Shown here one piece after another: positions 86-60,896 of a stretch of 64,000 nucleotides of DNA (within the stretch, counting starts at the first letter, position 1; the number at the start of each line of letters is the position of its first letter). A model generated the notes under the pieces. That model was not told where the DNA came from, searched no databases, and saw only the letters and a list, made by a program, of their open reading frames with translations. A program made the translations under genes and the position numbers. Source of the stretch: a virus (taxonomy: Duplodnaviria; Caudoviricetes); IMG/VR virus record IMGVR_UViG_2811995030_000001, positions 64,001 through 128,000 of that record, one strand, 5' to 3'.

Positions 86-304
86 ATGATTCCTAACAAA
101 ATTAAAATAGTTTCTAATTGTCCTCACACTGGTCAAGATGGGCTTTTACCTGAAGTCATAGGGAAAGTATTTAGTGTTGCATATTATGAGCCTCACACAA
201 AAGAAGCAAGCGTTTATAGTGAAGCCTATAAGGGAGTTATTTCTCTTAATGAAAAGGAATATGAAATTGTTAGCCGATATGTAGTAGAATATAACTCAAA
301 GTAA
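86..304 (+). CDS. hypothetical phage protein
   Basis: ORF with GAGGTG RBS; stop codon forms the left arm of a core repeat. Confidence 0.7.
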   Translation: MIPNKIKIVSNCPHTGQDGLLPEVIGKVFSVAYYEPHTKEASVYSEAYKGVISLNEKEYEIVSRYVVEYNSK

Positions 305-341
305 AGTAACAATTTTACACGAATAAAAGGGAGGGTTATAT

Positions 342-767
342 ATGAGGGAATATAGAATTTTTTATGGGATAAATGATGAGAAGAAAGAATATGAAGAAAC
401 TATGGTATTTGAAAAGGAATACGAGGCAGAATTATTTGCTCGCAGGTTGGCGTATGAAGAATATAAGAAGAGCACAGGGGCAGAAGAAGACTTATCATTT
501 CTTTATGGTGAATTTAATAGTATTGGTATATTTTCAGTCGAATGTGTAGAAGATGAGGAGTTTGAAAAGGCTACTAGAAAATGTCCATGTTGTGGCGAAG
601 ATGTACATTTTGAAAATGGAGAATTAAAATCTGAAAATCGTCAAAGTAGCTATGATAGTGATTATGGATATAGTACTGAAAAAATTCAGTTTATAGGCAG
701 ATATACGGAAAATGTGACGGCTTCAAAATGTGAAAATTGTAATTATATAATGTTATTTGCTGATTAA
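342..767 (+). CDS. hypothetical protein with C-terminal Zn ribbon
   Basis: CPCC...CENC pairs; GGGAGG RBS. Confidence 0.7.
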   Translation: MREYRIFYGINDEKKEYEETMVFEKEYEAELFARRLAYEEYKKSTGAEEDLSFLYGEFNSIGIFSVECVEDEEFEKATRKCPCCGEDVHFENGELKSENRQSSYDSDYGYSTEKIQFIGRYTENVTASKCENCNYIMLFAD

Positions 768-802
768 GTAATCATGTTATACTAATCTTAACAATAAAAG
801 GA

Positions 803-1132
803 GTGGAAAGCATGGAGGATATTTTAAAACAAATACTTGAAAAGGTTTCTAAAATTGAAAATGGATTAGATACAGTTAAGGATGATGTTAATTCATTAAA
901 GCAAGGTCAACAAGAGTCAAAAGAATTTCTTTCAGCTCTAAAAGAAGGTCAAGAACTAGCAAACGCTAAACTTACAGCACTTGAAGAAACAATGAACAAA
1001 GGATTTGATAACGTTCATTTCCGTCTTGATCGTTTAGAAAGAAGAGTAAAGATGATTGATATAGATTTAGATGAAATGTATGAACAAGCTAAGCAAAACC
1101 GAAAAGATATAGACAGATTATTAAGAAATTAA
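803..1132 (+). CDS. coiled-coil hypothetical protein
   Basis: heptad-rich helical sequence; AAGGAG RBS; downstream hairpin at 1133-1156. Confidence 0.7.
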   Translation: MESMEDILKQILEKVSKIENGLDTVKDDVNSLKQGQQESKEFLSALKEGQELANAKLTALEETMNKGFDNVHFRLDRLERRVKMIDIDLDEMYEQAKQNRKDIDRLLRN

Positions 1133-1240
1133 AGCCTACAATACGTGGGCTTCTTTCTGCATTTGAGGAGGTGGTTAGATTGGAGTAGATGGAATGTTTA
1201 TAAATTAAATCAATTACATTATAATAAGGAGTGGTATTGA

Positions 1241-1648
1241 ATGAAAGTATTGTCAAAATTAGAAAATACAAAAATGAAAGCATATATAATGATTTTAGAA
1301 GTCTATCCTAATTTACTGCCTAAAATTGAATATGAGGTATCGGAGGAATTAGAAGAACTGCTAAAACAATTAGAAATAAATGAAAAAGCTACAACCTTAT
1401 ATAATCCTCTTCAAAAAACAATATTCTTACTAGCTCACAATTATACTGTTGATGATTTATTATGGGGAATAGGAAGTGCTATTCATGAACAATTATTTAA
1501 TAGTAAAAAAGTAATTCTTCCTAAAGGAATTAAGTTTCCAGAAGCATTTGCGAAAAGTGTAGATCAAACTTTCTTTTATCAAGGTGGAATGAGTGCTGAT
1601 GCTTCAATATTAAAGAAAATGTTAGAAGATAAGCTAAAAGAGAAATAG
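1241..1648 (+). CDS. hypothetical protein
   Basis: ORF with AAGGAG RBS. Confidence 0.65.
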   Translation: MKVLSKLENTKMKAYIMILEVYPNLLPKIEYEVSEELEELLKQLEINEKATTLYNPLQKTIFLLAHNYTVDDLLWGIGSAIHEQLFNSKKVILPKGIKFPEAFAKSVDQTFFYQGGMSADASILKKMLEDKLKEK

Positions 1649-1668
1649 TAAGTATAAGAGGTGTTACC

Positions 1669-1860
1669 GTGAAAAGTTTAAACAATCAATATTACTATTG
1701 TTATAACAAATCAGTACATACATATTTACATTTAAAAAGGGGAATTCCTTTTATATGTACAGCTTTACATGAGAAGACAGGTAAAAAGTTTTGGCTATAT
1801 GAGCAAGATAATAGATTAACTAATGCGTTAAGAGATTACCAGTTAAATAAAAATAGTTAA
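1669..1860 (+). CDS. small phage protein (DUF5659-like)
   Basis: HxKTGKKFWLYE motif; GAGGTG RBS. Confidence 0.55.
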   Translation: MKSLNNQYYYCYNKSVHTYLHLKRGIPFICTALHEKTGKKFWLYEQDNRLTNALRDYQLNKNS

Positions 1861-1863
1861 ATA

Positions 1864-1961
1864 GCTGCGTGGATGGTTTGGAAACCTGCGCAGCAAGGTT
1901 AATATAAGACACGCCAGTGGATTATATTAATAACAGGTTTCCAAGGTCTTAACATCCACTG
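1864..1961 (+). promoter_or_regulatory. long imperfect hairpin / structured leader upstream of the RepL-like gene
   Basis: GTGGATG/CATCCAC, TTGGAAACCTG/CAGGTTTCCAA (11 bp) and TTAATATAA/TTATATTAA (9 bp) nested stems. Confidence 0.7.
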
Positions 1962-2000
1962 TTAAACGAATAAAGTTAAACTAAAGGAGATGCTTTTATA

Positions 2001-6695: not shown

Positions 6696-6887
6696 TTGAA
6701 TGAAATGTTTTGGCTGCATCAGTATGCATTCTATTTAGACAATCAGATAAGCTTATTGCGAGAAGAGAGAAAGCTCACTAATTTAAGAACAGAACAGGCT
6801 GAGGATGTAATTGAATGTTTATCTAAAAATAAAATTGATATGGAATATGTAAATGCAGAGCAAGTAAATTTAATACTAATTAATTAA
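6696..6887 (+). CDS. hypothetical protein
   Basis: ORF whose stop codon forms the core repeat at 6885. Confidence 0.5.
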   Translation: MNEMFWLHQYAFYLDNQISLLREERKLTNLRTEQAEDVIECLSKNKIDMEYVNAEQVNLILIN

Positions 6888-6921
6888 AAGGTTGATTTTA
6901 CATTGATAAGGAGGGAAATTA

Positions 6922-8405: not shown

Positions 8406-8480
8406 TCCTTTTCTCTTCATTCTGTAAAATACCGATTTTAAATAAAATAAAATACGTAAAAAGAGGGAGAAGAAGCAACA

Positions 8481-11778: not shown

Positions 11779-11988
11779 ATGATACATATGAAGCAGATTA
11801 GAAGCTATGAAGTGAAGGAGTTCACCTACAATAGTAAGACCTATAGAAATTATCATGTCGCTGATATGGAGCGAGAAGGATGGATTGAGAGCGGTCAAAT
11901 GAAACGCTTAAAACCTAACGTAAGTATTACGGATGCAACTAAAGATGACTATGAGTGGTATGCACATTTTCAAAGAGAAACTACATGA
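11779..11988 (+). CDS. hypothetical protein
   Basis: AAGGAG RBS; stop codon in the core repeat at 11986. Confidence 0.65.
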   Translation: MIHMKQIRSYEVKEFTYNSKTYRNYHVADMEREGWIESGQMKRLKPNVSITDATKDDYEWYAHFQRETT

Positions 11989-12026
11989 AATCTACTTTTC
12001 ACATAGAAATAAGGGAGGAAAATGAA

Positions 12027-12626: not shown

Positions 12627-12795
12627 GGAAGTGATCTAGATGGATAAGAAAAAGAAATACGACAAAGTTAAATGTAGACAATGTGGAAGGGAAATTGAAT
12701 TGAAGGAACATATCAATAGATGTAAATGCGGTGCAATAACTAAATTACTAAAGTATTGATAAAAAATTGATTTTAAATAGAGGAGGAGAAGTAGA

Positions 12796-13068
12796 ATGAA
12801 TGTAAAAAGAGAAGGGTTTGCCCTAGTTACTTTAGAAGGTGAGTATTTAACGTTTGAACAAGTCGCAGAAAGAGATATAGAAGTGTACGCTGTAGAGAAC
12901 GCAGATGAGGCTGACCTATTCAACACAGAAATGGAAGCTAATGAAATTGCATTAGATATTCTTAAAGAAAGGTCACAGTGGAATTACCTTTTAGAATCCA
13001 CTAATAATCCTGTTTCAATTGTGAAGGTAATCAAGGAATTAAAAATAGAAAAGACAAAAGAACTTTAG
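12796..13068 (+). CDS. hypothetical protein between core repeats 12760 and 13070
   Basis: AGGAGG RBS. Confidence 0.7.
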   Translation: MNVKREGFALVTLEGEYLTFEQVAERDIEVYAVENADEADLFNTEMEANEIALDILKERSQWNYLLESTNNPVSIVKVIKELKIEKTKEL

Positions 13069-13256
13069 GTAAAAAGTTAATTTTAAATGAAATAAATTAC
13101 TCTTAGGTGGTGTGTGTATGGGGGCTGTGACATAAAGTTAATAAATTATTCATATTAGAAAGTAATTTATTAACTCAACTAACCCAATTTTTGTTAATAT
13201 GTCTTTAGGACTATTATAATAGTTCTATCACATATTTACGGAAAGAGTGGGAAGAA

Positions 13257-17320: not shown

Positions 17321-17653
17321 ATGATTATAGATTCACCGTTGTTTAAGGATTTTCCTAAAGTTGCTTTAACTGCTGATAATTATGGCTTTACATATGAGGA
17401 TATTTCATACTTGATGGATATAGTTAGGCTTGATCCATATTGCCAACAACGCTATAGAGGTGAAGGCTCTATTGAAATTGCATTAAAGACTATCATATTT
17501 CGTTTAGACCTTAAAAAAGAAGCGTTTTATAATTTTGTATCGACTTTGCAAGCAAAAGACTATGAGGACATGGAACATTTGTCATTCTTAGTGGGGAAAT
17601 ATCATCTTGCTGAATTTGTAGCAATAGTAAATGCTTTAGGCAATGTAAAATGA
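17321..17653 (+). CDS. hypothetical protein
   Basis: ORF with RBS. Confidence 0.65.
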   Translation: MIIDSPLFKDFPKVALTADNYGFTYEDISYLMDIVRLDPYCQQRYRGEGSIEIALKTIIFRLDLKKEAFYNFVSTLQAKDYEDMEHLSFLVGKYHLAEFVAIVNALGNVK

Positions 17654-17687
17654 GTCTTTTACACGATAATCAAGGGGGAAATATGTT

Positions 17688-20732: not shown

Positions 20733-21022
20733 TGATTTGGTTCATTATAGCACTATTTGGAACGTTAGTTGGGTTTGTTGGATTAGGGTTATACCTAACA
20801 ATTGAAGATGAAAAGGAGTACAGAAATGCGACTGAAACGAAAAAAGAAGCGTAAAGACTCCAGTTGGATTGAATGGGTTTTTGAACTACTTGAACCGTTA
20901 TGGTTATTGTTTCAGTGGGTCATCAAATTAATACATAGATATATTTAAACTAAAATTGGAATTTTATATAGAAATAGGGTTTCAAGAATGGCGTTAAATC
21001 AACGTTTCTAGGAGGTGCGAAA

Positions 21023-22465: not shown

Positions 22466-22500
22466 GATTTAGGATAAAAGATAGCTTATATCTAGAATTA

Positions 22501-26856: not shown

Positions 26857-27082
26857 GCCAGCACAATATTTTATTTAGTATCACTGAGGACAGTAGAGAT
26901 GGCGTTAACTTTCAAGTAAAGGGAAATGAAGTCAAATTTATTCTTGAACATAAAGAAGATGTTTTAGCAGTGATGGAGAGATTACAAAAAGCTTTGATTA
27001 ATGAAACTTATCCTTTCACACGATTCAAATAAAGAAAAATAAAATATTTATTACATAGAATATAGATTTTACATAATTATTA

Positions 27083-27561: not shown

Positions 27562-28611
27562 ATGGAAGCTAAAGTATTAGCATTCGATAATGGTAAATCA
27601 GATAATTATAAAGTATATGAGATCATTGAAAAATTTTTAGACTTCTATAAATATAATGATTTTGGTAAAGCTAATAATACAGCTAGAAATTATAAGAGTC
27701 ATATTAATCACTTCTTCGATTACCTAAAGAAAGATATTAGATTCTTAACTGTTGAAGATATTCAAATTACTGTTGATGATGTTGAAAGATATATGAAATA
27801 TATGAAGAATTCTAAAGATAATACAGCTTCAACAATTAAAACTAAAGTAGGAACTATTAATAAATTATATGAAGAATTCTATAAGAAGGACTTAGTTAAG
27901 GATTTAAAAGCATTTGATACTAAGTTATTTAAAAAATTAAATACTACTTCGCAGGAAATTGATGCATTCACAGCTAATGAAATAGAAGCAATGGTTAAAG
28001 TTGCAGGGGAAGATAGAGAGAAGCCACTTGAAAAACAATGTTTATTAAAATTAGCAGCTACTATTGGTTTTCGTATAGGTGACTTATTAAATTTAACTTG
28101 GAGTGATTTTGCAGTATATGATGAATATGTATTAGTTAAGGCCAGACAACCAAAGAGAGGTAATGCTTATGCTAATAAAATTTCACATGAATTATATGAA
28201 GAGATATTAGAAATTAAATCTGAAAACGCTTCTAAAGATAATAAAGTATTTAATTTTGTCTCTAAGACTGTAGAGAGAATGATGACTAGATATACTGAGA
28301 AAATTGGTATTCAAGATGAAAGATCATTAAGCTTCCATAGTATTCGTAAGTTTGCTATTACAAATTTCTATTCAATTACTAAAGATTTCTACGCAACTCA
28401 ACTATTTGCTAATCATAAAGAGCCTTCTACAACGAAAAAGTATATTAAATATGTAGATGATTATGGTGTAATTGGCCTATTCAATTCTAATAAAGAAGAC
28501 ACAAATGAGTTAAATGATATTTCAGAAGCTGAATTAAGAGCAGTTATTAAGTCATTAACTGAAAGTCAGAAATTAGATTTACTTAGAAAACATAAAGAGT
28601 TATTTGGTTAG
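27562..28611 (+). CDS. yopP: tyrosine recombinase, SPbeta YopP-like, catalytic residues intact
   Basis: SAM-like N-domain; GFRIGDL (R), FHSIRK (HxxR), ANH, TTKKY; synteny. Confidence 0.8.
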   Translation: MEAKVLAFDNGKSDNYKVYEIIEKFLDFYKYNDFGKANNTARNYKSHINHFFDYLKKDIRFLTVEDIQITVDDVERYMKYMKNSKDNTASTIKTKVGTINKLYEEFYKKDLVKDLKAFDTKLFKKLNTTSQEIDAFTANEIEAMVKVAGEDREKPLEKQCLLKLAATIGFRIGDLLNLTWSDFAVYDEYVLVKARQPKRGNAYANKISHELYEEILEIKSENASKDNKVFNFVSKTVERMMTRYTEKIGIQDERSLSFHSIRKFAITNFYSITKDFYATQLFANHKEPSTTKKYIKYVDDYGVIGLFNSNKEDTNELNDISEAELRAVIKSLTESQKLDLLRKHKELFG

Positions 28612-28810: not shown

Positions 28811-30193
28811 ATGAAAAGTATGAAATTGGGAAGAGATTTTGAGGAAGTGTGTGAGGTTGTTACAGAAGCAATTCAAATGTATAAGAGAAACAGAAGAAGA
28901 TATCCTTTAGTTCAAGTAATTGCTGAAGACCTTACAAAGTACAGTGTGAACCCTAGTTACATTAGAGATATATTTAACAATCCAGAAGAAAAGCTAAGAG
29001 AAGTAGATAGAAAATTAGTTATTTTATTTATGGAAGCATTTTACAGACATGAACAAATTCAAGGCGTAGAACCAAGTTTATACTTTACAGAACCAGAGAT
29101 TAAAGAGGCTAAATTGTACGATGGCATGGAAGGTAGAAATGTTGATCTAGGCTTACCTTACACATTTAATCGTGCATTGCCAGCAGGAGTAGACGCTTAT
29201 TTAGCTACTGTTACTCCAAGTGATATTAAGAATTTAATGGATGGTCAGGATTTACATTATGATTTTGAAACTCAACGTGAAGCTGATTTCATTAAGACTC
29301 ACGAGGGGGTTCGTGCTGTTCCTAAGATTAACTCAAATAATATCGCTGAAATGGCAGATTTAATGGTTAAGGGAGAATTAATGCCAAGTACATTAGTTTG
29401 GAATGCTGCGGTAGGAACTTCAGATACAGGTGACGAATTAGTATACGATGTTAAATCTACATCTTTAACTATCCAAAGAGGAACAATTGTTAATAATTTA
29501 GACGGTTATCATCGTTGCAAAGCTACAGTAAGAGCGTTTGAGATTGATCCTGAGTTTGATAAGAAACATAGCTTTGTATTCTCTGTATTAGTTGTAAACT
29601 ATTCAACTAAACAAGCTCAAAAGTATTTAGCTCAACACGCTAAAGCTATGCCTATGTCAGTAACTCATGTTGAAATGTTGGATGCTGTACGTAGGGGTGA
29701 CGACATAATTAAACAATTGAGGAATGAATCTGACTTAGCAGGTCGTATTTCTACTAAAGAAAATGCTATGGTGTCAGTAGATCAATTAACAACTTATAAA
29801 GTATTAGTGGAAGCAATTGAAAAAGATTTCAAATTAGATAGTAAAATGAAGACAATTAAAGCTGGAGATTATTTAGTTAAATTCTTTACTTATTTATTAG
29901 GTGAATTTGAAGATGAGTTTACGAATAAATATCAAGAGACTAGAGAATATTCTTTTATAAATCATAGTTCGATGTTCGCTGGATACATTAGATTAGCAAG
30001 TAAAATGTATTATGAAGAAATTTCATTAGACAACTTAGAGAAAATAATTAATAGTATAGATTTTAGTAAAGACTCGGACAACTTTAAAGAATTAAATAAT
30101 GAAAAGAATCCAGAATCAGCTAAAGCACAACAAATATGCAGAGACTTTTTTGACAAATTAGATATAGAGAAATCGATAGGGGCGATTAAGTGA
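28811..30193 (+). CDS. yopQ: DGQHR/DndB-like domain protein, SPbeta YopQ-like
   Basis: YDFETQRE and NNLDGYHR motifs; synteny. Confidence 0.75.
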   Translation: MKSMKLGRDFEEVCEVVTEAIQMYKRNRRRYPLVQVIAEDLTKYSVNPSYIRDIFNNPEEKLREVDRKLVILFMEAFYRHEQIQGVEPSLYFTEPEIKEAKLYDGMEGRNVDLGLPYTFNRALPAGVDAYLATVTPSDIKNLMDGQDLHYDFETQREADFIKTHEGVRAVPKINSNNIAEMADLMVKGELMPSTLVWNAAVGTSDTGDELVYDVKSTSLTIQRGTIVNNLDGYHRCKATVRAFEIDPEFDKKHSFVFSVLVVNYSTKQAQKYLAQHAKAMPMSVTHVEMLDAVRRGDDIIKQLRNESDLAGRISTKENAMVSVDQLTTYKVLVEAIEKDFKLDSKMKTIKAGDYLVKFFTYLLGEFEDEFTNKYQETREYSFINHSSMFAGYIRLASKMYYEEISLDNLEKIINSIDFSKDSDNFKELNNEKNPESAKAQQICRDFFDKLDIEKSIGAIK

Positions 30194-31218
30194 TGACTGG
30201 TTTTTATAATGAGGGATTAAAACTAGCTTATATGCATCGTGAGGGTGCGCCAGAAAGTACAGAAGATATATATAAATCGGTATTCAGACGTTCTAAAGTA
30301 GAAGAGGAGCGTTTACAAAGAGACTTAAAGGATTTCACTAGGGATGATTTTCGTAATTTATTTCATTATTTAGAGCCATCAACCATACCTGCTGTAAGAA
30401 CATTGGCAAGTTTTATATCTAACTATGTAGAATGGACAATTGAAAACGGACATAGAACCAGTAGAGATAATCCGCTGAAGCCATTAGGAGACAGTTTTAT
30501 TGAGGCCGTAGTGTCTGGACATAAATTATATATAAATGAAGAAGAATTATTAGAAATTGAAGCTGATCCAAGAATTAGTTTTGCTAATAAAGTAATCCTT
30601 AGATTAATATGGGAAGGTGTTTTAGGTAAGGCTAATTCTGAATTATTGAATTTACACAAAGATGATATAGATTTTGATAAACGAATGTTGACTTTACGTG
30701 ATGATGATAAAGATATAGGTGAGAGAACTATACAAGTTAGTGAAAGATGTATTGAAATAATCAAAGCAGCATTGAATGAAGATAATTATACAATTACAAC
30801 GCCTAGAGGCAATAGAGATTTTGAATTGATAAATACAGGATATGTTATAAAGAAAACTACATTTGGTAAAGCATCTGCTGATACATCTGGTAAAGCAACT
30901 AAACAGGTAACAATGAGTCGATTAAAAGATGTGGCATATGGTCTAGAAATGAAATTCCTAACACCTACAAATGTAAGAAGATCAGGAATGATAAATATGG
31001 CTAAGAATTTATTTTTACGTGATGGAGAATTATCACCTGAACAATTTAGAGAAATATCTAAGCAATTTGGAATTAAGAAAATCAACAGAAGCTCAAATCC
31101 AAATGAAGTTAATATGGATTATAATTATTATTATACAGTAAAGGTGTTTACAACAAGAGACAACATTCTAAAGTTATATGGAATAGACATCGAGAAAGAA
31201 CCTTCTACTCAACAGTAA
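30190..31218 (+). CDS. mrpR: MrpR/YopR-like master repressor (degenerate tyrosine recombinase fold)
   Basis: LIWEGVLGKANSELLNL lacks the first catalytic Arg; TNVRRSGM lacks His; synteny. Confidence 0.8.
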   Translation: MMTGFYNEGLKLAYMHREGAPESTEDIYKSVFRRSKVEEERLQRDLKDFTRDDFRNLFHYLEPSTIPAVRTLASFISNYVEWTIENGHRTSRDNPLKPLGDSFIEAVVSGHKLYINEEELLEIEADPRISFANKVILRLIWEGVLGKANSELLNLHKDDIDFDKRMLTLRDDDKDIGERTIQVSERCIEIIKAALNEDNYTITTPRGNRDFELINTGYVIKKTTFGKASADTSGKATKQVTMSRLKDVAYGLEMKFLTPTNVRRSGMINMAKNLFLRDGELSPEQFREISKQFGIKKINRSSNPNEVNMDYNYYYTVKVFTTRDNILKLYGIDIEKEPSTQQ

Positions 31219-32594: not shown

Positions 32595-33229
32595 TGAATC
32601 AAGAAGAAGTTAACAAAAATAAAATACATTTGAGAGGTGAATGGAATGGTGTTTGATGAGGTAGTTGTTCAGCACATTAAAAGAAGCCTTAAAAAGTTAG
32701 ATCAAGAAGATTTACTTACACTTTCAGCTCAGATTGATAGCATGGTTGAAAAGAAAGAGAAAAATAGAAAGTATATGGAATCATACATAGAGGCCAGCTT
32801 AAAGGTAGGAGAATAAAATGTTAATAGTTGAGAAATTACATAAAGTCATAGAAGAGGCGCAGACGGCCTTAGAGTTAATTGAAAGTGGGAAGGTTAGAGA
32901 CAGCATTAAACACTTAGATGAAGTGAAAGATAGCAACTTTGCAGCTACTCATCTAGCTTGGATCATGGTTAAGGATGAGGAATAATTAAAGTCAAAAGAT
33001 TATTTTACATAGAAGAGGTGAAAGGCGATTAATGATAAAGATGGAGTTTTAGTTGGAATATGGAGAGAAGTTTTAAATATATTGGACGCTCACTACAAGG
33101 AATATCAAACACCAATGTCACTAGAGGATTTAATAAAAGCTTCAGGTGCTAAACAGGAGGAAACTAAACAAGAAATAGAAGGTGCTTATAATCTTTGGGT
33201 AGGAACGACACTTTAAGGAGGAATTAAAT

Positions 33230-33805: not shown

Positions 33806-33852
33806 TATCGGTAAATGCATTCTTTTACATAGAATTAAAAGGGGGAGAAATT

Positions 33853-34922: not shown

Positions 34923-35002
34923 GATTATGGAATGAATAATGCTGTAAAATATACCTTTTATAGAGAATAAATAATAAATAAAGTTAAAAATGAGGTGAAT
35001 AT

Positions 35003-36279: not shown

Positions 36280-37170
36280 ATTACATAAAAGTTGCATTTT
36301 ACAGGAAAATAAATAATATAAAATACATAAAAGGTGGAATATATTTGACAAAACAATTATTAGGAACTTTAGAGCTTGACCGTGTTTATCAAATGAATTG
36401 TTTAAATGGGATGAAGTTGATTTCTGATAACAGTGTAGATTTAACGGTTACGTCTCCACCCTATGATAATTTACGTAAGTATAATGGTTATTCGTTTGAT
36501 TTTGAATCTGTTGCTAATGAACTTTATAGAATTACTAGAAATGGGGGAATTGTGGTATGGGTTGTAAATGACTCTACTGTAAAAGGAAGTGAATCAGGTA
36601 CAAGTTTTAAGCAGGCATTGTTCTTTAAAGAAGTGGGCTTTAACCTCCATGACACAATGATTTACGCTAAAACAAACCCCATGCCCCTTACGCATAGTAG
36701 GTATGAACAACAGTTTGAATATATGTTTGTATTAGCTAAAGGAAAGCCGAATACATTTAACCCACTACTTAAAGAAAATAAAGATTTTGGGAAAATAAAA
36801 GGTGGAACATTTAGACACACGGGAGAAGAAACACAAGCAAAGCATAAGAAAAAAGAAACAAAAAAAGAAGGATACCGTAATAACATATGGTTTTATTCAG
36901 TTGGCAGAGGAGGTACAACAAACGATAAATTCGCTTTCAAGCATCCTGCCATGTTCCCTGAAAGATTAGCTGAAGATCATATTCTTAGTTGGAGTAATGA
37001 AGAAGACGTTGTGTTTGATCCATTTATGGGAAGTGGTACAACTGCGAAAATGGCATTGCTCAACAATAGAAGATATATTGGATTTGAAATATCAGAAGAA
37101 TACATAGAAATTGCTAATAAACGGTTAGATAACATAGAATTACAGATTACATAAAAGAAACATTTTACAG
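36280..37170. repeat. 25-bp direct repeats flanking the MTase gene
   Basis: ATTACATAAAAG-TTG-CATTTTACAG (36280) vs ATTACATAAAAG-AAA-CATTTTACAG (37146). Confidence 0.85.
36345..37154 (+). CDS. beta-class N4-cytosine/N6-adenine DNA methyltransferase
   Basis: TSPPY, HPAMFP and DPFMGSGTT; TTG start after AAGGTGG. Confidence 0.9.
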   Translation: MTKQLLGTLELDRVYQMNCLNGMKLISDNSVDLTVTSPPYDNLRKYNGYSFDFESVANELYRITRNGGIVVWVVNDSTVKGSESGTSFKQALFFKEVGFNLHDTMIYAKTNPMPLTHSRYEQQFEYMFVLAKGKPNTFNPLLKENKDFGKIKGGTFRHTGEETQAKHKKKETKKEGYRNNIWFYSVGRGGTTNDKFAFKHPAMFPERLAEDHILSWSNEEDVVFDPFMGSGTTAKMALLNNRRYIGFEISEEYIEIANKRLDNIELQIT

Positions 37171-39145: not shown

Positions 39146-39355
39146 ATGTTAGAAGAACGAAAAGATTTAAATTTTATGATTGGGAAAACAGTGGAGAAAG
39201 TATTTTCTAGAAAGAATTACGAGTTTATGACTATTCAATTTACAGATGGTACTTTTGTGAATATTTACAATGTTGCAGATAAAGAAAGAGAACCTGAATG
39301 CATCAGCGCAAAAGTAGATTATGTTTTGACTGAATCTCGTAAGAGTAATGGATAA
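39146..39355 (+). CDS. hypothetical protein between core repeats 39114 and 39353
   Basis: AGGAGG RBS. Confidence 0.65.
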   Translation: MLEERKDLNFMIGKTVEKVFSRKNYEFMTIQFTDGTFVNIYNVADKEREPECISAKVDYVLTESRKSNG

Positions 39356-39392
39356 AATTAGCTTTTTATATTAAATAAAATCAATTATAGGA

Positions 39393-40497: not shown

Positions 40498-40532
40498 ATA
40501 AAATATTACATTTACATAGAGGAGAGGATAAT

Positions 40533-40742: not shown

Positions 40743-40981
40743 ATCTATAAAAAATTTCCCTTTTAAATAGATAAGGAGCGTGAAAGTATGATTAAGGAAG
40801 AAATGTGGAGAGACTACGAAGAGTTAAATGAGTTAAGTAATGAGTTTCATAGTAAGGTTTATGAGTATATTAATGTATATGGACTAGACGACAAAACTAA
40901 ACAAATTTTAATCGGAAAGAAAATGTGGCTAGAGATGATTTTAGAGAAGAATTAATTTAAAGTTTCTTATGGAGGGATTGA

Positions 40982-41338: not shown

Positions 41339-41374
41339 TAAAATTCTCAGTTTACTTAGAAAAGGAGTGGTTAA

Positions 41375-44983: not shown

Positions 44984-45038
44984 TACATATTTGTGGAAAA
45001 TGATGATTTTAGAGAGAATATTAAAGGAGGAGTAGCCC

Positions 45039-45512: not shown

Positions 45513-45576
45513 AGATACAGAGATAAGGAACAGCAAGAAAAAACAACGAAGTAAATAAAATAAGATACATAAGGGT

Positions 45577-45801: not shown

Positions 45802-46210
45802 ATAATAATAAAGAGGTGATAAATTGAAAAAGCTCTTTAAGCGTAAACAATGTAAGCAATGTGGAGAGCAACTAAGATTATTTGATAAAACTAACTTCTG
45901 TGATTATAACTGTTATAAAATATATGAAAGAAATAAAAAGGAATATGAAGAAGTAAAGAGAAGACTTAGTAAAACATGATTATATAAAATACTTATTTTA
46001 CGTAAATTTCAACTTAGAAAAACGGAGTAAATGGAAGAAAAACAGAGAATAAGAGAGCTTTATTTTACACGATTGTGTAACTAGGGTTTGTACTTCCTAG
46101 GGAGGGATTAGTTACCCCTTCAAACCACATCCTATCTATGAGTTAGGCCTTGATGGTCGGGCAATAAAGAATAGTAGTAGTGACACTATTCTCCGCCTAG
46201 GAGGTATAAG

Positions 46211-46272: not shown

Positions 46273-46284
46273 TAAGACATAGCT

Positions 46285-46659: not shown

Positions 46660-46686
46660 AATATATTATAAAAGGAGATTGATAAT

Positions 46687-47871: not shown

Positions 47872-47964
47872 TAAATAGTTCTGTATCAAATTTAGGTTTT
47901 ATCTAGAGTAATAGATTATTAATAAAAAAATAAAATTATACATATAACTGGAGGAATTTATAAT

Positions 47965-49071: not shown

Positions 49072-49162
49072 TATATCATAGACAATCAAATAACTAATTA
49101 CATATAAGCAGTAAAATTATAATTAAAAAAAATAAATTACATACATTTGGAGGAATTTATAT

Positions 49163-50137: not shown

Positions 50138-50206
50138 TTGGTTTCAGATATATAAGGGTGGCAGGATACAAACTCCTGTCACCTATTCTAAAAAAGGAGT
50201 GAGCGT

Positions 50207-50833: not shown

Positions 50834-50847
50834 AGAGGGGTTGTTGA

Positions 50848-52347: not shown

Positions 52348-52358
52348 GAGGTGTTTAG

Positions 52359-53381: not shown

Positions 53382-54491
53382 GTGGGAGCTAGAGATAAAT
53401 TAGTGATTCCTAAGAAATTTATTAAAAAATATGGTGAAAAATTTCCTCTTTGGAGTTATAGTAAGATTAACACCTTAGATAATTGCAAGCATGAATACTA
53501 TCTTTCCAGAGTTAAGAAGCTAAAGAGTGAGGATAATATCTATACAGTATCAGGAACATGTGCTCATGATATTATTCAAGACTATTACGAAAATAAAATA
53601 AAATACAATCAAATGGCTGATCTATTTGAAACAAAGTTCTTTGATATTGAAATATCGGATTTTAGATTTAGTAGTGATGAGCAGAAAAACACATCAATGA
53701 GAAACAAATATAAAAGTTGTGTTAAAGATTTCTTTCTTACACACAAGCCAATTGAAACTAAAGTATTAACAGAAAAATTAATTTGGGTAGATGTAGACGG
53801 CCATGTGTTTATGGGATATGTAGATGCAATCATTAAAGATCAAGACGGCAATTATAATATTATTGATTGGAAAACAAGTACAATTTATAAGGGAGCTAAG
53901 ATTAAATTACATGGTAAACAGCTATTATTATACGCTTTGGGTCTTCATCAGATGGGTGTTCCTTTGGATAAGATTAAAGTTGCATGGAATTTCCTAAAGT
54001 ATGTCAACGTTACATATAAGCAAAAGAATGGTAAGTATAAAACAACAAGCTCAGAGAGACATAAATGGGTAGCAGCAATCAAAACACCTTTAAAGAAGGA
54101 CATCAAGAGTGTGTATAATATGGAAGATTGGGAGGCTGATATTAAACTTGAAGAGTTAATTTCTGCAAATTCATTGGATGGACTAGATGAAGAAATACAA
54201 AACAAATATAAATTAGATGATTGTTATGTGTATGCTGAAGTATCGGAGGAATTGGTTAATGAATTAAAACGTGATCTTGTAGCAGGAATTGAAGAGATTA
54301 ATGAGAGAGGTGACGAGGAAGACAAGTGGAATCGTGAGCCTATCCAGCCTAAAGATGAGTTTTATTGTAATGTCTTATGTGGAGTAAAAAGACATTGTAA
54401 ATTCTATAAAGCTTATCAGGAAAAGAATAAGAAGTATCAATCAGAAGAAGATAAACTACTTGAAGAAATAGACAACATTTTATCCTTATAG
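53382..54491 (+). CDS. PD-(D/E)XK nuclease, Cas4/AddB-like with Fe-S cysteines
   Basis: WSYSK...C, GYVDAI, IIDWKT, QLLLY, CNVLCGVKRHC. Confidence 0.85.
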   Translation: MGARDKLVIPKKFIKKYGEKFPLWSYSKINTLDNCKHEYYLSRVKKLKSEDNIYTVSGTCAHDIIQDYYENKIKYNQMADLFETKFFDIEISDFRFSSDEQKNTSMRNKYKSCVKDFFLTHKPIETKVLTEKLIWVDVDGHVFMGYVDAIIKDQDGNYNIIDWKTSTIYKGAKIKLHGKQLLLYALGLHQMGVPLDKIKVAWNFLKYVNVTYKQKNGKYKTTSSERHKWVAAIKTPLKKDIKSVYNMEDWEADIKLEELISANSLDGLDEEIQNKYKLDDCYVYAEVSEELVNELKRDLVAGIEEINERGDEEDKWNREPIQPKDEFYCNVLCGVKRHCKFYKAYQEKNKKYQSEEDKLLEEIDNILSL

Positions 54492-54507
54492 GAGGTGAGG
54501 AATTGAG

Positions 54508-57500: not shown

Positions 57501-57531
57501 ACATTTAACTTTATGGAATGTCTTAAGATAA
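54508..57531 (+). CDS. dnaE: DNA polymerase III alpha subunit (YorL-like)
   Basis: PHP HLHS, RGSVGGS, GDIDIDF, HPAG, KFDILGL, FGYNHS. Confidence 0.95.
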   Translation: MGNYTLFHLHSMLSNATTIDSASHYEEYIKLAKKHNMKALAFSEHGGVFEWIKKKQAMNKEGIKYIHGQEFYLTTTLEEKLKETYHIGLYAKNWEGVKELNKLSSIAYKKSTNHYYYKPRISLEELFQTSKNIIVTTACLGSILWQRRNELGIINKFMDWAVNNKDRVFLEIQYHNDVEQIEYNQLLHKWSQRYGLRLIAGTDTHSSSEYKAECRSILQKAKNMSYGHEDAYDLTFKTYEELIDKFKEQDSLPEEVYMEAIENTNVFADMIEDFELDTSFKYPKIYENDEEEFKSTLAKKYKQKVQDGIIDDSKGEYKKGIAEELRAFKKLGMLSFMTFMSELTTWCWDNNIPIGYNRGSVGGSVIAYIMDIIDLDPVKWNTVFSRFCNEDRVSLGDIDIDFDPNDRGKVFEYIINRFENKQTAYIITFNTVADKGTIDEIGRALKIPLSEVSVIKKDYDSDPDKARETYPHVFKYFDGIKGTITSKGMHPAGIVASPITLDDSIGFIYDEDKPIVQCGMKAIDSLNYVKFDILGLKNIGVIKKTFEYLNKRYMKSHEIDWNDSDVWRDMINSPVAIFQFEGNYAFEMLQRFKPQAINDMSIVNAALRPSGASYRDKLMAKEFHNNPSEQIDELLKDNMGYLIFQEDTIKFLTDICGFSGAEADNVRRAIGKKDMEKLQEALPLILDGYCSKSDKSRDIAEQEAKEFIQIISDSSDYQFGYNHSTGYSMVGYTCAMLRYYYPLEFTTSFLNQAANDDDIKNGAELAKMKGIKILPPKYGFSKGEYFFDREDNAIYKGIGSIKFLNEDVGNKLYELSKTKKHDTFSDLLYDIQHNSIANFKQIKILATLNFFSEFGGNQKLLNIIDKYEARLKNRDLKEGTKVKRLEEINTYEKEINNDKVGIKEQIRAEIDYYGYEVTIIEKSPESVYIVTGIDTKYAPKIRLYNLHSGEVLNLKCSKAEMKKNMFGQYSIIQVKQTVNKKKKRPVNGKWVEIDEMEQHLTLWNVLR

Positions 57532-57579
57532 ATAAATAATACATAGGAGTGATTCATTATCGGTTTAACTTATAAACAA

Positions 57580-58353
57580 TTGGCGAAGAGAGTAACATTA
57601 ATTGGAGCAGCTATTGCAGTACCTTTTACATATAGTTCTTATACCAATGCACAAATGGAGAAGAAAGTAGATAATTCAAATAAGAAGTATGAGAAGAAGA
57701 TTAAGAAGCAACAGGAAGAAATCAAGGCATTGAAGGAAGTTAATAAGGATCAAGAGGTTAAAATTGAGACTAACACTCAAAGTGTGAGTGATACAAGTAA
57801 GAAAATTGATGAAACTGAGGTGTCTCTTAGGCGACAGATTGCAGAAGTTGAAGCAGAAATAGAAAAGAAAAATAAATTACAGCAAGATATTAAAGAAAAG
57901 AAGGCTGAAGAGGTTAAGCAACCAGTTAAACAGCAAGAAACTAAGCCTCAGAGTAAGCCTGCAACACAAGTTAATAAAGTGGAAGATACTAAGGAGGAGA
58001 AGGTTGAAACTAAGGATACAGGGAGTTTAAAGACATTTGATGCTGAGGTTACATATTATACGGCCAATGCAGAAAGCACAGGAAAGTCTGTTGGTGATGT
58101 TGCTTATGGAATTACAGCAAGTGGAGCACAAGTAAGATCGGGTATGGTTGCTATGGATAATAGTATCTATCCATTCGGAACAAAGGTACGTATTAATGGA
58201 ACAGTATATACTAATTGTGATACTGGAGGCGCTATTAAGGGAAACAGAATAGACATTTATGTTCCTACTGTATCTCAAGCACAGCAATTAGGAAGACAGA
58301 CAGTCAAAGCTGAAGTGGTTGAATGGGGAAATGGTAAGTGTGTAGCTAACTAA
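57580..58353 (+). CDS. secreted 3D-domain cell-wall protein (YorM-like)
   Basis: signal/TM segment, coiled coil, ITASG, DTGGAIKGNRIDIY. Confidence 0.85.
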   Translation: MAKRVTLIGAAIAVPFTYSSYTNAQMEKKVDNSNKKYEKKIKKQQEEIKALKEVNKDQEVKIETNTQSVSDTSKKIDETEVSLRRQIAEVEAEIEKKNKLQQDIKEKKAEEVKQPVKQQETKPQSKPATQVNKVEDTKEEKVETKDTGSLKTFDAEVTYYTANAESTGKSVGDVAYGITASGAQVRSGMVAMDNSIYPFGTKVRINGTVYTNCDTGGAIKGNRIDIYVPTVSQAQQLGRQTVKAEVVEWGNGKCVAN

Positions 58354-58453
58354 GTAAAAGAATAATTTTACATTAAAAGTAGCTTTGAAAAATGGAGAAA
58401 ACGAGAGAAAAATGGAGAATGAGAGAGTTTAAAAATAACAAAATACATAAAAG

Positions 58454-58927: not shown

Positions 58928-58985
58928 AAAATATATTAAATAAAATAAAATACATATAGACAAAGAAAACAAGTCATGGTATATT
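58926..58985 (+). promoter_or_regulatory. phage promoter with conserved operator-like block
   Basis: TAGACA-17-TATATT with extended TG; block matches 19818 and 46211. Confidence 0.7.
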
Positions 58986-59166
58986 AGATTTATCAAAAGG
59001 AAATGAGGTGAATAAAGAGGGTGGAAATAATCTTAAACGGCAAAACTCCGTTGATTATAAAAGATGAGGAGGGAAACATTCTTTACGAGTTTAAGGTAGA
59101 AAGTAAGATCAAGGATATGAGAAAGAAAACAAAATAAATTACATAAATCAAGAGGAGTGATTAATA

Positions 59167-59364
59167 ATGAGTATGGAATATTCGTTACTTACACTAAAGA
59201 ATCAAAAGAGGAATGTACAAGAAAGATTAAAGGAAATAAGTGAAGGTCAATATGATAAATTTGATGGTAAATCAGTCAAGAAACTTGAAACAGAATTAGA
59301 ACATAAGCTTAGAGACTTAGAGTTTGCTATCGAATACATAGAAGATTACAATGTTGAATTTTAA
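59167..59364 (+). CDS. hypothetical protein
   Basis: AGGAG RBS. Confidence 0.6.
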   Translation: MSMEYSLLTLKNQKRNVQERLKEISEGQYDKFDGKSVKKLETELEHKLRDLEFAIEYIEDYNVEF

Positions 59365-59471
59365 GCTTTAGGCTTAACTAAAAAGTCTAGCCTTGAAAAA
59401 CGTTGATATATAAGGGTTTTTGAAAGTATAAATCAATGTAAAATCCATATTTTATAGAAATATAAAGGAGG

Positions 59472-59768
59472 TTGTTTATGGGAGATTTTGCAGATGATGC
59501 ATATGAAGCTGCAATGCAAGAAATGTACTTATTCTCCAAAGCTTTAGATGAAGAAATGGAGAATACTCCTAATCAAGAAGTAGTTAATAGAATGATTACT
59601 TATTTCAAAGAAAACTCAGTCGATGTGCAGAATAAATTGGAGCTATTGTGCAAGGAAATCTTAATAACAACTAAACGAACAAAACGTTTAACTCCTAAAC
59701 AAAAATCATGCTTGCTTAAATTATTGCTTCAGAGAGAAGATCATTCAGATGATTACTACTATTATTAA
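59472..59768 (+). CDS. hypothetical protein
   Basis: AGGAGG RBS; MGDFADD. Confidence 0.65.
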   Translation: MFMGDFADDAYEAAMQEMYLFSKALDEEMENTPNQEVVNRMITYFKENSVDVQNKLELLCKEILITTKRTKRLTPKQKSCLLKLLLQREDHSDDYYYY

Positions 59769-59891
59769 AAAAATAAGGAGGTGATTCAATGAATCCAAAC
59801 AGCTTTCCAATGGCCGATATTCAAGTAATTAAATCTGAAGAAGATAAATAATACATAATAAACTAAATAAAAACAATGAGGAGGAATTTAA

Positions 59892-60188
59892 ATGAGTTAT
59901 CAAGAGGTAGAAGTAGCAGAGGTTAAGGGTTTAAATGACGTGAAGGTGTTTCAACTTTGTGAGTGTGACGCTGTAGCAGCTTATTCCTTAGAGGAAGCAA
60001 GAGAGTGGTATAAAAACTTAACAGGATTAGAAGACGATGAGCTTTATAAATTAAGCGAAGTATCAGAAGTATCTTTAGATATGAAGGTTAGAAAAGGCGA
60101 AGAAGTAGAAGGAATGATTACTGTAGGCCAGATTATCCAAGATTATTGGAATGGTGAACCTTTCATTGCGGTAACTAATTTATATTAA
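59892..60188 (+). CDS. conserved phage protein
   Basis: CECDAVAAYSLEEAREWY. Confidence 0.7.
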   Translation: MSYQEVEVAEVKGLNDVKVFQLCECDAVAAYSLEEAREWYKNLTGLEDDELYKLSEVSEVSLDMKVRKGEEVEGMITVGQIIQDYWNGEPFIAVTNLY

Positions 60189-60213
60189 TAATACATAAAA
60201 CAGGAGAGATGAA

Positions 60214-60540
60214 ATGCAACCGTATTTTTACAACGCAGAATGTATAGGTGTGACGGACGGTGACACCTGTACGGTCAAAATTGATGTTGGATTTGGATTC
60301 AGCACAATACAAAAATTAAGGTTTCTAGGAGTTAATACACCAGAAAGACATGTAGAAGGCTATGAAGAGGCTACACAATTTACTGAAGATAAAATTTTAA
60401 ATAAAGAGATTATCATTAACACACATAAGAAAGATGCTTTTGGCAGATGGTTAGCAGATATTTATTATAAAGAAGATGATGCTTATAGATCATTAAATGA
60501 GGATTTATTAACAAATGAGTTAGCTGTAGTTTATAAATAA
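60214..60540 (+). CDS. thermonuclease (SNase) family protein
   Basis: VTDGDT, RFLGVNTPE, DAFGRWLA. Confidence 0.85.
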   Translation: MQPYFYNAECIGVTDGDTCTVKIDVGFGFSTIQKLRFLGVNTPERHVEGYEEATQFTEDKILNKEIIINTHKKDAFGRWLADIYYKEDDAYRSLNEDLLTNELAVVYK

Positions 60541-60549
60541 AATACATAA

Positions 60550-60855
60550 GTGGGAGCGTGTTATATGAAAAGTATTTTAGGCGTATTGTTAATTCTTGGT
60601 GGAGTTGTTTTAGGAGCATATGTTGGAGTTTGGGTATGCTTAGTTGGTGGAATTGTTGGATTAGTTTCAGCAGTAAATATGTTGATTGATAAAGAAGGAT
60701 TGGATGGAATGTTGGTTGCTTTCAGCATTTTGAAGATTATGTTTGCAGGATTCTTCGGATACATTAGTGTAGTTGTTGGATTCTTCTCAGGAGCAGCTCT
60801 ATTAGCCTCAGATTCACCTAAAAAGAGAAACAGAAAGAAAAAGAAAACTACATAA
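60550..60855 (+). CDS. membrane protein
   Basis: two hydrophobic segments. Confidence 0.7.
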   Translation: MGACYMKSILGVLLILGGVVLGAYVGVWVCLVGGIVGLVSAVNMLIDKEGLDGMLVAFSILKIMFAGFFGYISVVVGFFSGAALLASDSPKKRNRKKKKTT

Positions 60856-60896
60856 AACTTATCTTTTAAGTTAACCTATTTTAAGGGGGTGAGCAG

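Follow-up and report, generated by a model that had tools for sequence, protein, structure and literature searches.

Sites of the dif type have an 11-6-11 layout. Modules bounded by such sites, the dif modules of Acinetobacter plasmids with their pdif (XerC/XerD) sites, have been described (Mindlin et al., 2019; PMC6449649), and we measured the same layout for a TAAAA-N6-TTTTA element that recurs in a 64,000-nt stretch of an SPbeta-like phage genome (hereafter the window). The likeness is one of layout; unlike in the plasmid modules, the replicon here is a phage, the acting enzyme may be phage-encoded, and each site has its own centre in a fixed order, which suggests replacement in register rather than the movement of modules. 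A second parallel is heterospecific lox/FRT cassette exchange, an engineered laboratory method with a known enzyme, which also uses identical arms with differing spacers; exchange then occurs only between like sites, so that order and orientation are kept. The phage elements, by contrast, constitute a putative system read from sequence, and their enzyme is only a candidate. Third, the attC sites and IntI of integrons likewise combine recombination-type sites 3' of promoterless small genes with a tyrosine recombinase encoded nearby. However, attC is defined by its folded single-strand structure and not by its sequence, whereas the sites here are sequence-strict, fold weakly and lack compensated variants.

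Other repeated elements of phages offer further comparisons. The PeSLs of T4-type phages are strong sigma-70-like promoters with terminator hairpins, which recombine by homology (Arbiol et al., 2010; PMC2839356); as described there, they too are a repeated junction element among small non-essential genes, and recombination between copies shuffles modules. Our sites differ from them in having no promoter or terminator signal, only 16 bases in common, and centres that differ between copies. The stoperators of cluster A mycobacteriophages (PMC9283540) are similarly dozens of short intergenic sites spread across a phage genome, but they are asymmetric, bound by a monomeric immunity repressor and variable by immunity group, whereas TAAAA-N6-TTTTA is symmetric and invariant across genera. 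Finally, the SPBRE of SPbeta, bound by MrpR, comes from the same phage family and is a dispersed intergenic element with a binder of recombinase fold (PMC10516654); it is present in about ten copies at promoters, as opposed to 34 copies of TAAAA-N6-TTTTA at gene ends, and its sequence and dyad are different.

The TAAAA-N6-TTTTA motif is real and its spacing is strict. The window holds 14 perfect copies where 1.20 are expected (sd 1.06, maximum 4; none of 100 shuffles reached 14), in agreement with the number and the gene-junction placement given in the original prediction. Across the whole 136.5-kb genome (G000) there are 19 perfect copies with the six-base spacer against 0-4 for each other spacer from 0 to 14, which bears out the predicted invariance of N6. 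Intergenic DNA alone (165 segments, 21,568 nt) contributes 16 of these, as against 0-2 at other spacers and a mean of 0.74 (maximum 4) in 500 first-order Markov simulations, so that the proposed comparison with the intergenic background also came out in favour of the motif. All 19 six-base centres are mutually different. Degenerate copies are another matter: with one mismatch, N6 is not enriched genome-wide (47 versus 26-48 at other spacers), but in intergenic DNA there are 24 versus 4-17 (mean about 11), about half of them in excess of background; with two mismatches there is no excess (80 versus 80-111). We estimate a fair window total at 14 perfect and roughly 8-12 one-mismatch copies, and the earlier figure of at least 35, with the two-mismatch class at background, was too high. 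Compensatory palindromes do exist at 11986 and 6659, as had been noticed, yet as a class they are at chance level (12 at N6 versus 15.0 at other spacers).

Taken with its flanks, the site is a 28-bp quasi-palindrome, aaTCTAcA-TAAAA-N6-TTTTA-cAtAGAaa, in an 11-6-11 layout with invariant arms (TCTAnA-TAAAA-N6-TTTTA-nnTAGA) and dyad half-site centres 11 bp apart; the inverted arms around 6 bp have the arrangement of a tyrosine-recombinase core site, as originally surmised. Of the 25 sites in the window whose arms have no more than one mismatch, 19 have a core that begins within an interval running from 8 nt before to 14 nt after the end of the upstream stop codon, and in 12 the next start lies 16-33 nt downstream. 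Site orientation matches gene direction, and dozens of copies occupy short intergenic spaces on both genome arms. Ten sites had been said to carry the stop codon as the first three nucleotides of the left arm: all ten have the sequence as written, and ORF ends place the stop there in nine (302, 6481, 6885, 11986, 16031, 21970, 37152, 39353 and 60853), whereas at 6659 no ORF of at least 50 aa ends at 6661. Equally in keeping with the original prediction, copies are absent from the interval bounded by the sites at 47886 and 58355, which holds the replication genes, and from the one bounded by those at 27056 and 32992, which holds the yopP-R-like genes; in the window, each of these modules is flanked by sites and has none inside. 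The window sites, with window coordinates and strand entered as '.' throughout, are:

6885..6900, perfect site, centre GGTTGA; left-arm TAA is the stop of ORF 6696-6887
8425..8440, perfect site, centre TACCGA; upstream stop 19 nt before
12760..12775, perfect site, centre AATTGA; encloses, together with 13070, one gene (12796-13068)
13070..13085, perfect site, centre AGTTAA; 1 nt past a stop, next called start 576 nt on
17646..17661, perfect site, centre TGAGTC; contains the stop of ORF 17321-17653
20951..20966, perfect site, centre TTGGAA; 16-mer equals that of SPbeta 76171 (upstream of aimR), which may be chance
34945..34960, perfect site, centre TATACC; right edge is the end of a short X9-contig island, 34930-34960
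36286..36301, perfect site, centre GTTGCA; upstream of a methylase gene
37152..37167, perfect site, centre GAAACA; TAA is the stop of the methylase ORF 36273-37154
39353..39368, perfect site, centre TTAGCT; TAA is the stop of ORF 39146-39355; X9 island 39351-39395 begins 2 nt earlier
45985..46000, perfect site, centre TACTTA; 5 nt past a stop, next called start 455 nt on
58355..58370, perfect site, centre GAATAA; first after the replication module
59439..59454, perfect site, centre TCCATA
60853..60868, perfect site, centre CTTATC; TAA is the stop of ORF 60550-60855
302..317, one-mismatch site (TAAAG arm, good flanks), a class only about half above background; TAA is the stop of ORF 86-304
11986..12001, TGAAA-N6-TTTCA variant with strong extended flanks (profile score 26.8), of a class not enriched; TGA is the stop of ORF 11779-11988
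22475..22490, one-mismatch site (TTATA arm); 9 nt past a stop
27056..27071, one-mismatch site (TAGAA arm); last before the yopP-R-like module
32992..33007, one-mismatch site (TCAAA arm); first after the yopP-R-like module
33812..33827, one-mismatch site (TAAAT arm); stop 6 nt before, start 25 nt after
40499..40514, one-mismatch site (ATTTA arm)
40750..40765, one-mismatch site (AAAAA arm)
41339..41354, one-mismatch site (GTTTA arm)
44996..45011, one-mismatch site (GAAAA arm)
47886..47901, one-mismatch site (TCAAA arm); last before the replication module

The database form of the methylase, P0001 (269 aa), begins downstream of the TTG at 36273, and the site at 37152 is followed by a terminator-like hairpin and then a minus-strand gene.

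Like its strictness and placement, the presence of the motif in distant relatives is seen directly: SPbeta has 34 perfect copies at N6 versus 0-4 at other spacers, and the Clostridioides phage LIBA6276 has 19 versus 2-9. Those G000 proteins that have SPbeta counterparts are only 23-73% identical to them, and the centres of the two genomes share one exact same-orientation match, which is near chance. We propose that the sites are DNA elements common to the whole SPbeta-like phage lineage.

Their behaviour is best seen in nine Bacillus SPbeta-like phages, compared over 13-17 kb; as relatives of one another, they yield counts that are not independent. The 16-mer of each joint is kept and the order of joints is constant, and the flanking genes are unrelated. 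All nine phages agree exactly at the GATGCA and AGACTG joints, and to the left and right of each joint at least five different sequences begin right at the arm. For the 191 phage pairs with a common centre, the 60-nt flanks are alike on neither side in 98, on one side in 59 and on both in 34. BLAST alignments end within -15 to +30 nt of a site in 228 of 934 cases, this interval making up 2.5% of bases, and the ends peak at -2 to 0 (left) and +15 to +17 (right). Among 494 unique breakpoints, 62 fall at most 3 nt from a perfect-site edge (0.75% expected) and 17 at one-mismatch sites (0.58% expected). Alignment of relatives, a check proposed at the outset, revealed clustering at site edges, but most breakpoints (415/494) lie away from sites. 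Breakpoints are present at 64 of 66 junctions with the motif versus 131 of 213 without it. As individual examples, Goe12, Goe13 and SPbetaL2 cease to match SPbeta at query position 1016, one base beyond site 116415, and the centres CAGAGA and ACGATA enclose Gad1 with three further genes in SPbetaL4 but only Gad2 in SPbetaL6. In an independent viral contig pair, L104/L106, three of the five perfect L104 sites (3108, 7246 and 13298) have a breakpoint at a distance of 0-2 nt from their left edge, and at a fourth, 18600, the upstream homology stops 2-3 nt inside the left arm. In these alignments, homology breakpoints coincide with site edges in the Bacillus phages and in this one other clade, which supports the view that the sites act as module boundaries associated with recombination, at any rate in the better-sampled relatives with the motif.

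Two properties of such comparisons count against reading the sites as crossover joints. In genomes that are 88-97% alike, descent alone leads one to expect six bases to be conserved, and a conserved binding site under selection would alone make BLAST alignments end at its edge.

As the sites mark gene swaps in relatives, they are probably built-in joints for module exchange, and our favoured reading, to which we give a probability of about 0.5, is that they are crossover joints, possibly worked by a putative tyrosine recombinase. Each site comes immediately after the stop that closes a gene or module, which would leave the next module its own ribosome site and promoter, and every joint is distinguished by a six-base centre peculiar to it. 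In a cell shared by two related phages, DNA would be exchanged between joints of the same centre, and the gene block between two joints would be replaced with the gene order unchanged. The crossover would lie inside the site, and the protein that binds the arms and swaps strands across the centre would be a dimer, most plausibly a tyrosine recombinase of the phage. The use of the sites as joints by the studied phage itself would be an extrapolation from other phages. The predicted role as exchange points is thus backed by the breakpoint clustering in relatives, but for the studied phage only weakly, by one table of read matches, in which 4 of 26 listed piece ends of a related 319-kb contig of run X9 lie at most 3 nt from core edges; three short islands of that contig fall on cores, at 24-45 nt and 80% likeness, a size at which matches may be unreliable. 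Counted against the joint model are the off-site majority of Bacillus breakpoints, the breakpoints at 131 of 213 motif-less junctions, the fact that centres are not clearly kept between distant phages, the mere 28% likeness of the YopP-like proteins of G000 and SPbeta, and the mostly homologous recombination in laboratory phi3Ts x SPbeta crosses, where 15 of 16 recombination sites are reported in ordinary homologous regions (10.1101/2020.05.06.055103).

The genes that bear on the enzyme and on regulation are:

27562..28611, + strand, YopP-like tyrosine recombinase of 349 aa (Pfam Phage_integrase 6.7e-17), a candidate enzyme only
28811..30193, + strand, YopQ-like DndB-family protein (Pfam DndB 2e-8; 27% to the SPbeta yopQ region)
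30190..31218, + strand, MrpR (YopR)-like repressor (Pfam MrpR_N_CB 2.3e-22, MrpR_C_cat 5e-18; 28% to SPbeta YopR)

The candidate enzymes are the YopP-like protein, whose alignment with XerD places R, H-x-x-R, H and Y in the expected catalytic columns, and the product of a highly conserved YomM-like recombinase gene outside the window (67-76% identical across genera). Against them, SPbeta YopP and the YomM-like proteins have K in the column of the second catalytic Arg, and LIBA6276, which has the motif, has no close YomM homologue.

The alternative that survives best, although we consider it unlikely, holds that a conserved phage DNA-binding protein occupies the sites in a regulatory or architectural role, the breakpoint clustering being a by-product of selected conserved islands; as variants, the sites could form an elongation-block array like the mycobacteriophage stoperators or serve the HU-like YonN homologue, which is 62% identical to that of SPbeta. 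The dyad with its 11-bp half-site separation, the dozens of gene-oriented intergenic copies on both arms, as described for stoperators (PMC9283540), the off-site majority of breakpoints and the homologous laboratory recombination would all suit such a protein. However, the arms are invariant over phages of Bacillus, Clostridioides and the studied host, where immunity operators would usually be expected to diverge, and near-perfect matches are required, which is unusual for operators. Further, replaced flanks begin precisely at the arm, and one joint has five or more alternatives to its left and to its right; promoter-like matches in 27-47 kb are at chance (105 versus 104), only one weak match overlapping a site; and the ten peaks reported for the master repressor of SPbeta are all at SPBRE promoters (PMC10516654), not at the 34 sites.

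We regard as improbable the integron-like scheme of the original prediction, in which the recombinase of 27562-28611 would excise cassettes of 1-3 genes in circular form and integrate them between adjacent sites. It would fit the filled catalytic columns, the bracketing of single genes by two perfect sites (12796-13068, and the methylase gene between 36286 and 37152) and the mini-circles that T4-type phages are reported to make between repeated junction cassettes (PMC2839356). Against this, relatives show same-centre replacement between phages and not circle insertion, and their fixed order of centres points to replacement, not to insertion wherever a site is present. Sites with differing centres are not joined by tyrosine recombinases, and as all 19 centres in the genome differ, neighbouring sites would be no partners for such an enzyme. 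Moreover, unlike attC, the sites have a strict sequence and form weak hairpins, and no attI-like acceptor or common promoter (Pc) was seen.

Quite improbable, too, is an RNA-level signal at gene ends, a small hairpin for processing, stability, termination or the translational coupling of successive genes. The anchoring to stop codons in 19 of 25 window sites, the 16-33 nt to the next start in 12 and the gene-following orientation are what such a signal would produce; however, the sites are predicted to fold only marginally (mean MFE -2.0 kcal/mol, mean z -0.8; 5 of 31 sites do not fold), compensated arm variants are not enriched, no terminator-like site in 27-47 kb overlaps a motif copy, none of the RNA runs contains the phage, and the SPbeta copies at 76171 and 99498 have an annotated terminator stem-loop before them and the next promoter after them.

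The alternative put forward at the outset, that these are SPBRE operators of the MrpR-like repressor encoded at 30190-31218, is rejected: the tyrosine-recombinase fold of MrpR (PMC10516654) would suit a palindrome with a short spacer, but the SPBRE that we derived from ten published MrpR-bound promoters, the comparison originally proposed, is a different sequence with an ATACA-N7-TGTAT dyad, SPbeta carries 34 TAAAA-N6-TTTTA copies beside it and the Clostridioides phage 19, and the same arms recur in phages whose MrpR homologues are 28% identical. By analogy, the MrpR-like repressor is probably context and not the binder of these sites. G000 also holds a separate 36-copy element adjoining promoter-like sequences, which is the better counterpart of SPBRE.

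The window covers bases 64001-128000 of G000, the single 136,534-bp contig (33% G+C) that represents the whole phage genome, whose gene layout is SPbeta-like: a minus-strand block reaches to about 47.5 kb, and a long run of small plus-strand genes comes after it. Outside the window it codes for homologues of the SPbeta structural genes, YonO, YonN and YomM; products within it include a DnaE-type polymerase and two methylases, in addition to the first three of the following proteins:

27562-28611 (window), YopP-like tyrosine recombinase
28811-30193 (window), DndB/YopQ-like protein
30190-31218 (window), MrpR/YopR-like protein
25866-26870 of G000 (L241:5866-6870), minus strand, YomM-like tyrosine recombinase in the structural gene block, outside the window

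A megablast search with 24 kb as the query recovered no near-identical DNA among phage records, and the polymerase shows 47% identity to that of the Clostridioides phage LIBA6276. Searches of viral contigs with the MrpR-like protein found no relative of G000, and those with DnaE (best match 48%) and a methylase (best 66%) found no close one; metagenome contigs likewise gave at best 66% and no close relative for the methylase, and genome contigs yielded three unrelated matches to DnaE at 23%. We also noticed a 481-aa ORF (22708-24153) with no Pfam match but with a match to PHROG 506, annotated as a transposase (E 5e-59), which may be an insertion sequence within the phage.

The inverted repeat TAAAA-N6-TTTTA (hereinafter the site, with TAAAA and TTTTA as its arms and the six free bases as its centre) occurs 14 times in the window, as against 1.2 expected from shuffles, and 19 times in the whole of G000, where the remaining spacer lengths between 0 and 14 yield 0-4 copies apiece. 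Its enrichment over the AT-rich intergenic background, which the original prediction presupposed, is clear: 16 of the 19 copies lie in the 21.6 kb of intergenic DNA defined by a simple gene caller, as opposed to 0-2 for the other spacers and an average of 0.74 in 500 Markov simulations. SPbeta has 34 perfect copies (0-4 at other spacers) with similar extended arms, many of them with a stop codon inside the left arm, and LIBA6276 (26% G+C) has 19 (2-9 at the other spacers from 0 to 13). One-mismatch copies show no enrichment at N6 across the whole of G000. The intergenic part alone contains 24, the other spacers averaging about 11 there, and its two-mismatch copies do not rise above background. 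Hence, the count of at least 35 copies given earlier is too high. Similarly, both ‘compensatory palindromes’ singled out at that stage exist, but in three genomes N6 has no excess, relative to other spacers, of palindromes deviating from the consensus by one compensated pair. A profile of about 50 sites takes the form TCTAnA-TAAAA-N6-TTTTA-nnTAGA, a quasi-palindrome of 11-6-11, with the outer four bases of the arms weaker than the inner five; its longer form, aaTCTAcA-TAAAA-N6-TTTTA-cAtAGAaa, has a slight gene-oriented asymmetry. This agrees with the 28-bp layout of the Xer/dif type, namely two inverted 11-bp arms around a 6-bp centre.

The sites are closely tied to gene ends. Among the 25 in the window with at most one arm mismatch, 19 have a core that starts in the interval from 8 nt ahead of the upstream stop codon's end to 14 nt past it; for six of the 19, the gene calls make the left-arm TAA or TGA the stop codon itself. 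With an arm starting with TAA, a stop within it is expected in about a third of the cases; this feature therefore requires no special explanation. Twelve of the 25 lie 16-33 nt upstream of the next start, and in long intergenic spaces the site keeps to the upstream stop (13070, 22475, 27056, 37152, 45985, 58355). As noted earlier, there are no sites within the replication module (47886 to 58355) or the yopP-R-like module (27056 to 32992), both of which are flanked by them. A few copies merge site and translation start, with a Shine-Dalgarno-like GGAG/GAGG word serving as the centre and a start codon sharing bases with the right arm, TTTT-ATG (G000 129232, equivalent to window 65232-65247; SPbeta 50182 and 39886). 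A strong terminator-like hairpin (37184-37205) stands right behind the 37152 site, at a convergent junction with a minus-strand gene (37209-37694).

Comparison of a 13-kb SPbeta stretch (yopT to yoqZ) with its counterparts in eight SPbeta-like phages of Bacillus revealed the same 16-mers in unchanged order in all nine. The joints with the centres GATGCA and AGACTG are identical in 9/9 phages, and their flanks come in at least five unrelated versions on either side, starting at the arm. More generally, same-centre joints of different Bacillus phages carry different flanks: across 191 same-centre phage pairs, neither 60-nt flank is alike in 98, one in 59 and both in 34. Pairwise BLAST alignments end within -15 to +30 nt of a site in 228 of 934 cases, an interval comprising 2.5% of the bases, with left ends peaking at -2 to 0 and right ends at +15 to +17 relative to the site. 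Counted as unique breakpoints, 62 of 494 lie within 3 nt of the edge of a perfect site (expected 0.75%) and 17 at one-mismatch sites (expected 0.58%); a breakpoint is present in 64/66 motif-bearing junctions versus 131/213 motif-less ones. All these counts are non-independent given that the phages are related to each other, and the majority of the 494 breakpoints are located elsewhere. Breakpoints likewise occur at sites in L104 and L106, two related viral contigs of another clade, and at the SPbeta 116415 site the homology of three phages ends one base beyond. Between G000 and SPbeta, the centres show one exact same-orientation match, which is near chance. The 16-mer at 20951 recurs in at least 120 stretches of viral contigs, those listed being mostly from unrelated viruses, with one SPbeta-like copy.

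A slot between the centres CAGAGA and ACGATA is occupied by different anti-Gabija genes, with Gad1 and three small genes in one phage and Gad2 alone in another, where the TAA of the site downstream doubles as the gad2 stop codon:

L154:13380-15200, gad1 locus of SPbetaL4
L157:12431-13698, gad2 locus of SPbetaL6

A passage of the preprint describing them places gad1 and gad2 “at the same locus” in SPbeta-like phages, for which exchange borne by the sites would account (10.1101/2023.05.01.538930).

For G000 itself, contigs of four sequencing runs were aligned to 27001-47000. A 319-kb contig of one run (X9) matches in collinear patches, three of which are short islands sitting on cores. Of its 26 listed piece ends, four come to within 3 nt of the edge of a core (34960, 35884, 38551, 39351), where by our own estimate about 0.3 would be expected by position alone, with the pieces being short and matched at 80% likeness; this lends weak support to the sites as module borders in G000. 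The other three runs (X5-X7) gave near-identical fragments only, and their joints at 27050/39522 and 27295/40073, with sides of only 20-22 nt, look like repeat matches and were set aside.

What might act at these sites? Their arms are unchanged across phages whose shared proteins show 23-73% identity. These invariant arms, together with the near-perfect match requirement and the 11-6-11 organization, suggest a dimeric sequence-specific protein, and as judged from sequence the sites resemble recombinase core sites. General homologous recombination would have little to work with in 16 shared bases, and still the same edges recur with many partners, which favours, though it does not prove, an exchange taking place within the site. 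Phage genome mosaicism is usually put down to selection acting on random exchanges, whether illegitimate or homologous. We posit, with a probability of about one in four, that SPbeta-like phages possess a natural form of recombinase-mediated cassette exchange. Here, a tyrosine recombinase of the phage, either the YopP-like or the YomM-like one, would bind the invariant TAAAA/TTTTA arms; the strand swap would be limited to sites sharing one six-base centre, such that the centres would function as addresses; and co-infecting phages would trade accessory genes, including anti-defence genes, slot by slot with gene order kept. A strict lineage-wide site at the borders of swapped genes would give these phages an inherent means of exchanging modules in an orderly way and offer a testable role for conserved phage recombinases without an assigned function. 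In practical terms, the sites are a landmark by which the accessory cassettes of unannotated SPbeta-like prophages can be marked out, and perhaps engineered. Word matching (rather than sequence) in the open-access literature, the 1999 SPbeta genome paper excluded, found no description of the motif; the SPbeta literature in the passages retrieved leaves it unmentioned, with those of the Yirmiya preprint only placing gad1 and gad2 at one locus.

Both the YopP-like and YomM-like proteins are candidate enzymes. The former matches XerD weakly (E 0.005), but aligns an Arg, His-x-x-Arg, His and Tyr in the expected columns, which we take to have the corresponding catalytic roles; its domains are the generic Phage_integrase and SAM-like ones only. 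The latter is the most conserved non-metabolic protein common to G000 and SPbeta (67% to SPbeta yomM), with 56-76% identity to counterparts in Psychrobacillus, Geobacillus, Staphylococcus and Mammaliicoccus SPbeta-like phages, the 76% being to Psychrobacillus phage Perkons. Against these candidates, a Lys occupies the second catalytic Arg column of the SPbeta YopP and YomM-like proteins, and LIBA6276 has the motif but no close YomM homologue. A site with a G/C-rich centre stands beside the YomM-like gene of G000, SPbeta and Geobacillus virus E3, but none lies within 700 nt of that gene in Perkons, Staphylococcus SPbeta-like 2 or phi116, and this pairing was dropped.

The main rival to cassette exchange is a regulatory or architectural binding array, as a conserved binding site would likewise make alignments stop at its edge. 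Moreover, the consulted portion of a study of laboratory phi3Ts x SPbeta crosses reports 15/16 recombinations in ordinary homology, the sole non-homologous crossover being in “a region following yosA” (10.1101/2020.05.06.055103). That region of the SPbeta record contains a perfect site (116415-116430; L003:16415-16430), and the hybrids on record show no sign of a non-homologous crossover at 116415. In an array of stoperators, the sites would be bound by the immunity repressor and block elongation; the published MrpR peaks of SPbeta, as far as the excerpted account goes, are at SPBRE only, this being the operator of the master repressor MrpR (PMC10516654), and another protein might occupy the sites. 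An RNA element at gene ends is unlikely: the position suits it, but the hairpins are weak (mean MFE -2.0 kcal/mol), there is no base-pair covariation (compensated variants being at chance), and in SPbeta there are copies located past an annotated terminator stem-loop and ahead of the next promoter. No RNA data set was listed as containing 32001-42000.

Also unlikely is the integron-like excision of cassettes originally predicted, with the recombinase at 27562-28611 as its agent, since all centres differ within G000 and relatives keep them in an unchanging order. Further, integron attC sites have a conserved fold with variable sequence and length, in contrast to the fixed 16-28 bp sequence and weak hairpins here, and no attI-like unique site was seen beside 27562-28611. 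Nor does 27001-47000 display the strong sigma-70-like promoter and terminator stem-loop of the T4-type promoter-early stem-loop (PeSL) cassettes: promoter-like matches number 105 versus 104 in shuffles, with one weak match overlapping a site, and terminator-like matches 3 versus 4.5. Reading the site as a sigma-A promoter (TCTACA as -35 and TAGAAT as -10, 18 nt apart) was rejected, since the start that it predicts would often fall beyond the ribosome site and the promoter scan is at chance, as was a YonO promoter, the late operon having one mapped start in the part of the source consulted (PMC5467207).

Finally, SPBRE itself, raised earlier as the alternative, is rejected. The retrieved text of the MrpR study lists ten promoters under ChAP-seq peaks and equates their 15-bp motif with SPBRE (PMC10516654). 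Derived here from those ten upstream regions in the SPBc2 record rather than from the published logo, the best common 15-mer belongs to an element resembling a promoter, whose ATACA-N7-TGTAT dyad is unrelated to TAAAA-N6-TTTTA. Location also differs: SPBRE marks about ten early/lysogeny promoters, whereas SPbeta has 34 copies of the site, many overlapping stops, and 19/25 in the window lie at or just past a stop. A better SPBRE counterpart in G000 is a second dispersed element, with the core AATAAA(A/T)TAC, usually followed by AT, in 36 gene-oriented copies (in the window, e.g. 6153, 8446, 12350, 19837, 27249, 31272, 45466, 46230, 58944, 60536 and 63670). It may be either that counterpart or an early-promoter element, and often stands directly 5' of TTGACx/TATAAT-like pairs or just before the ribosome site.
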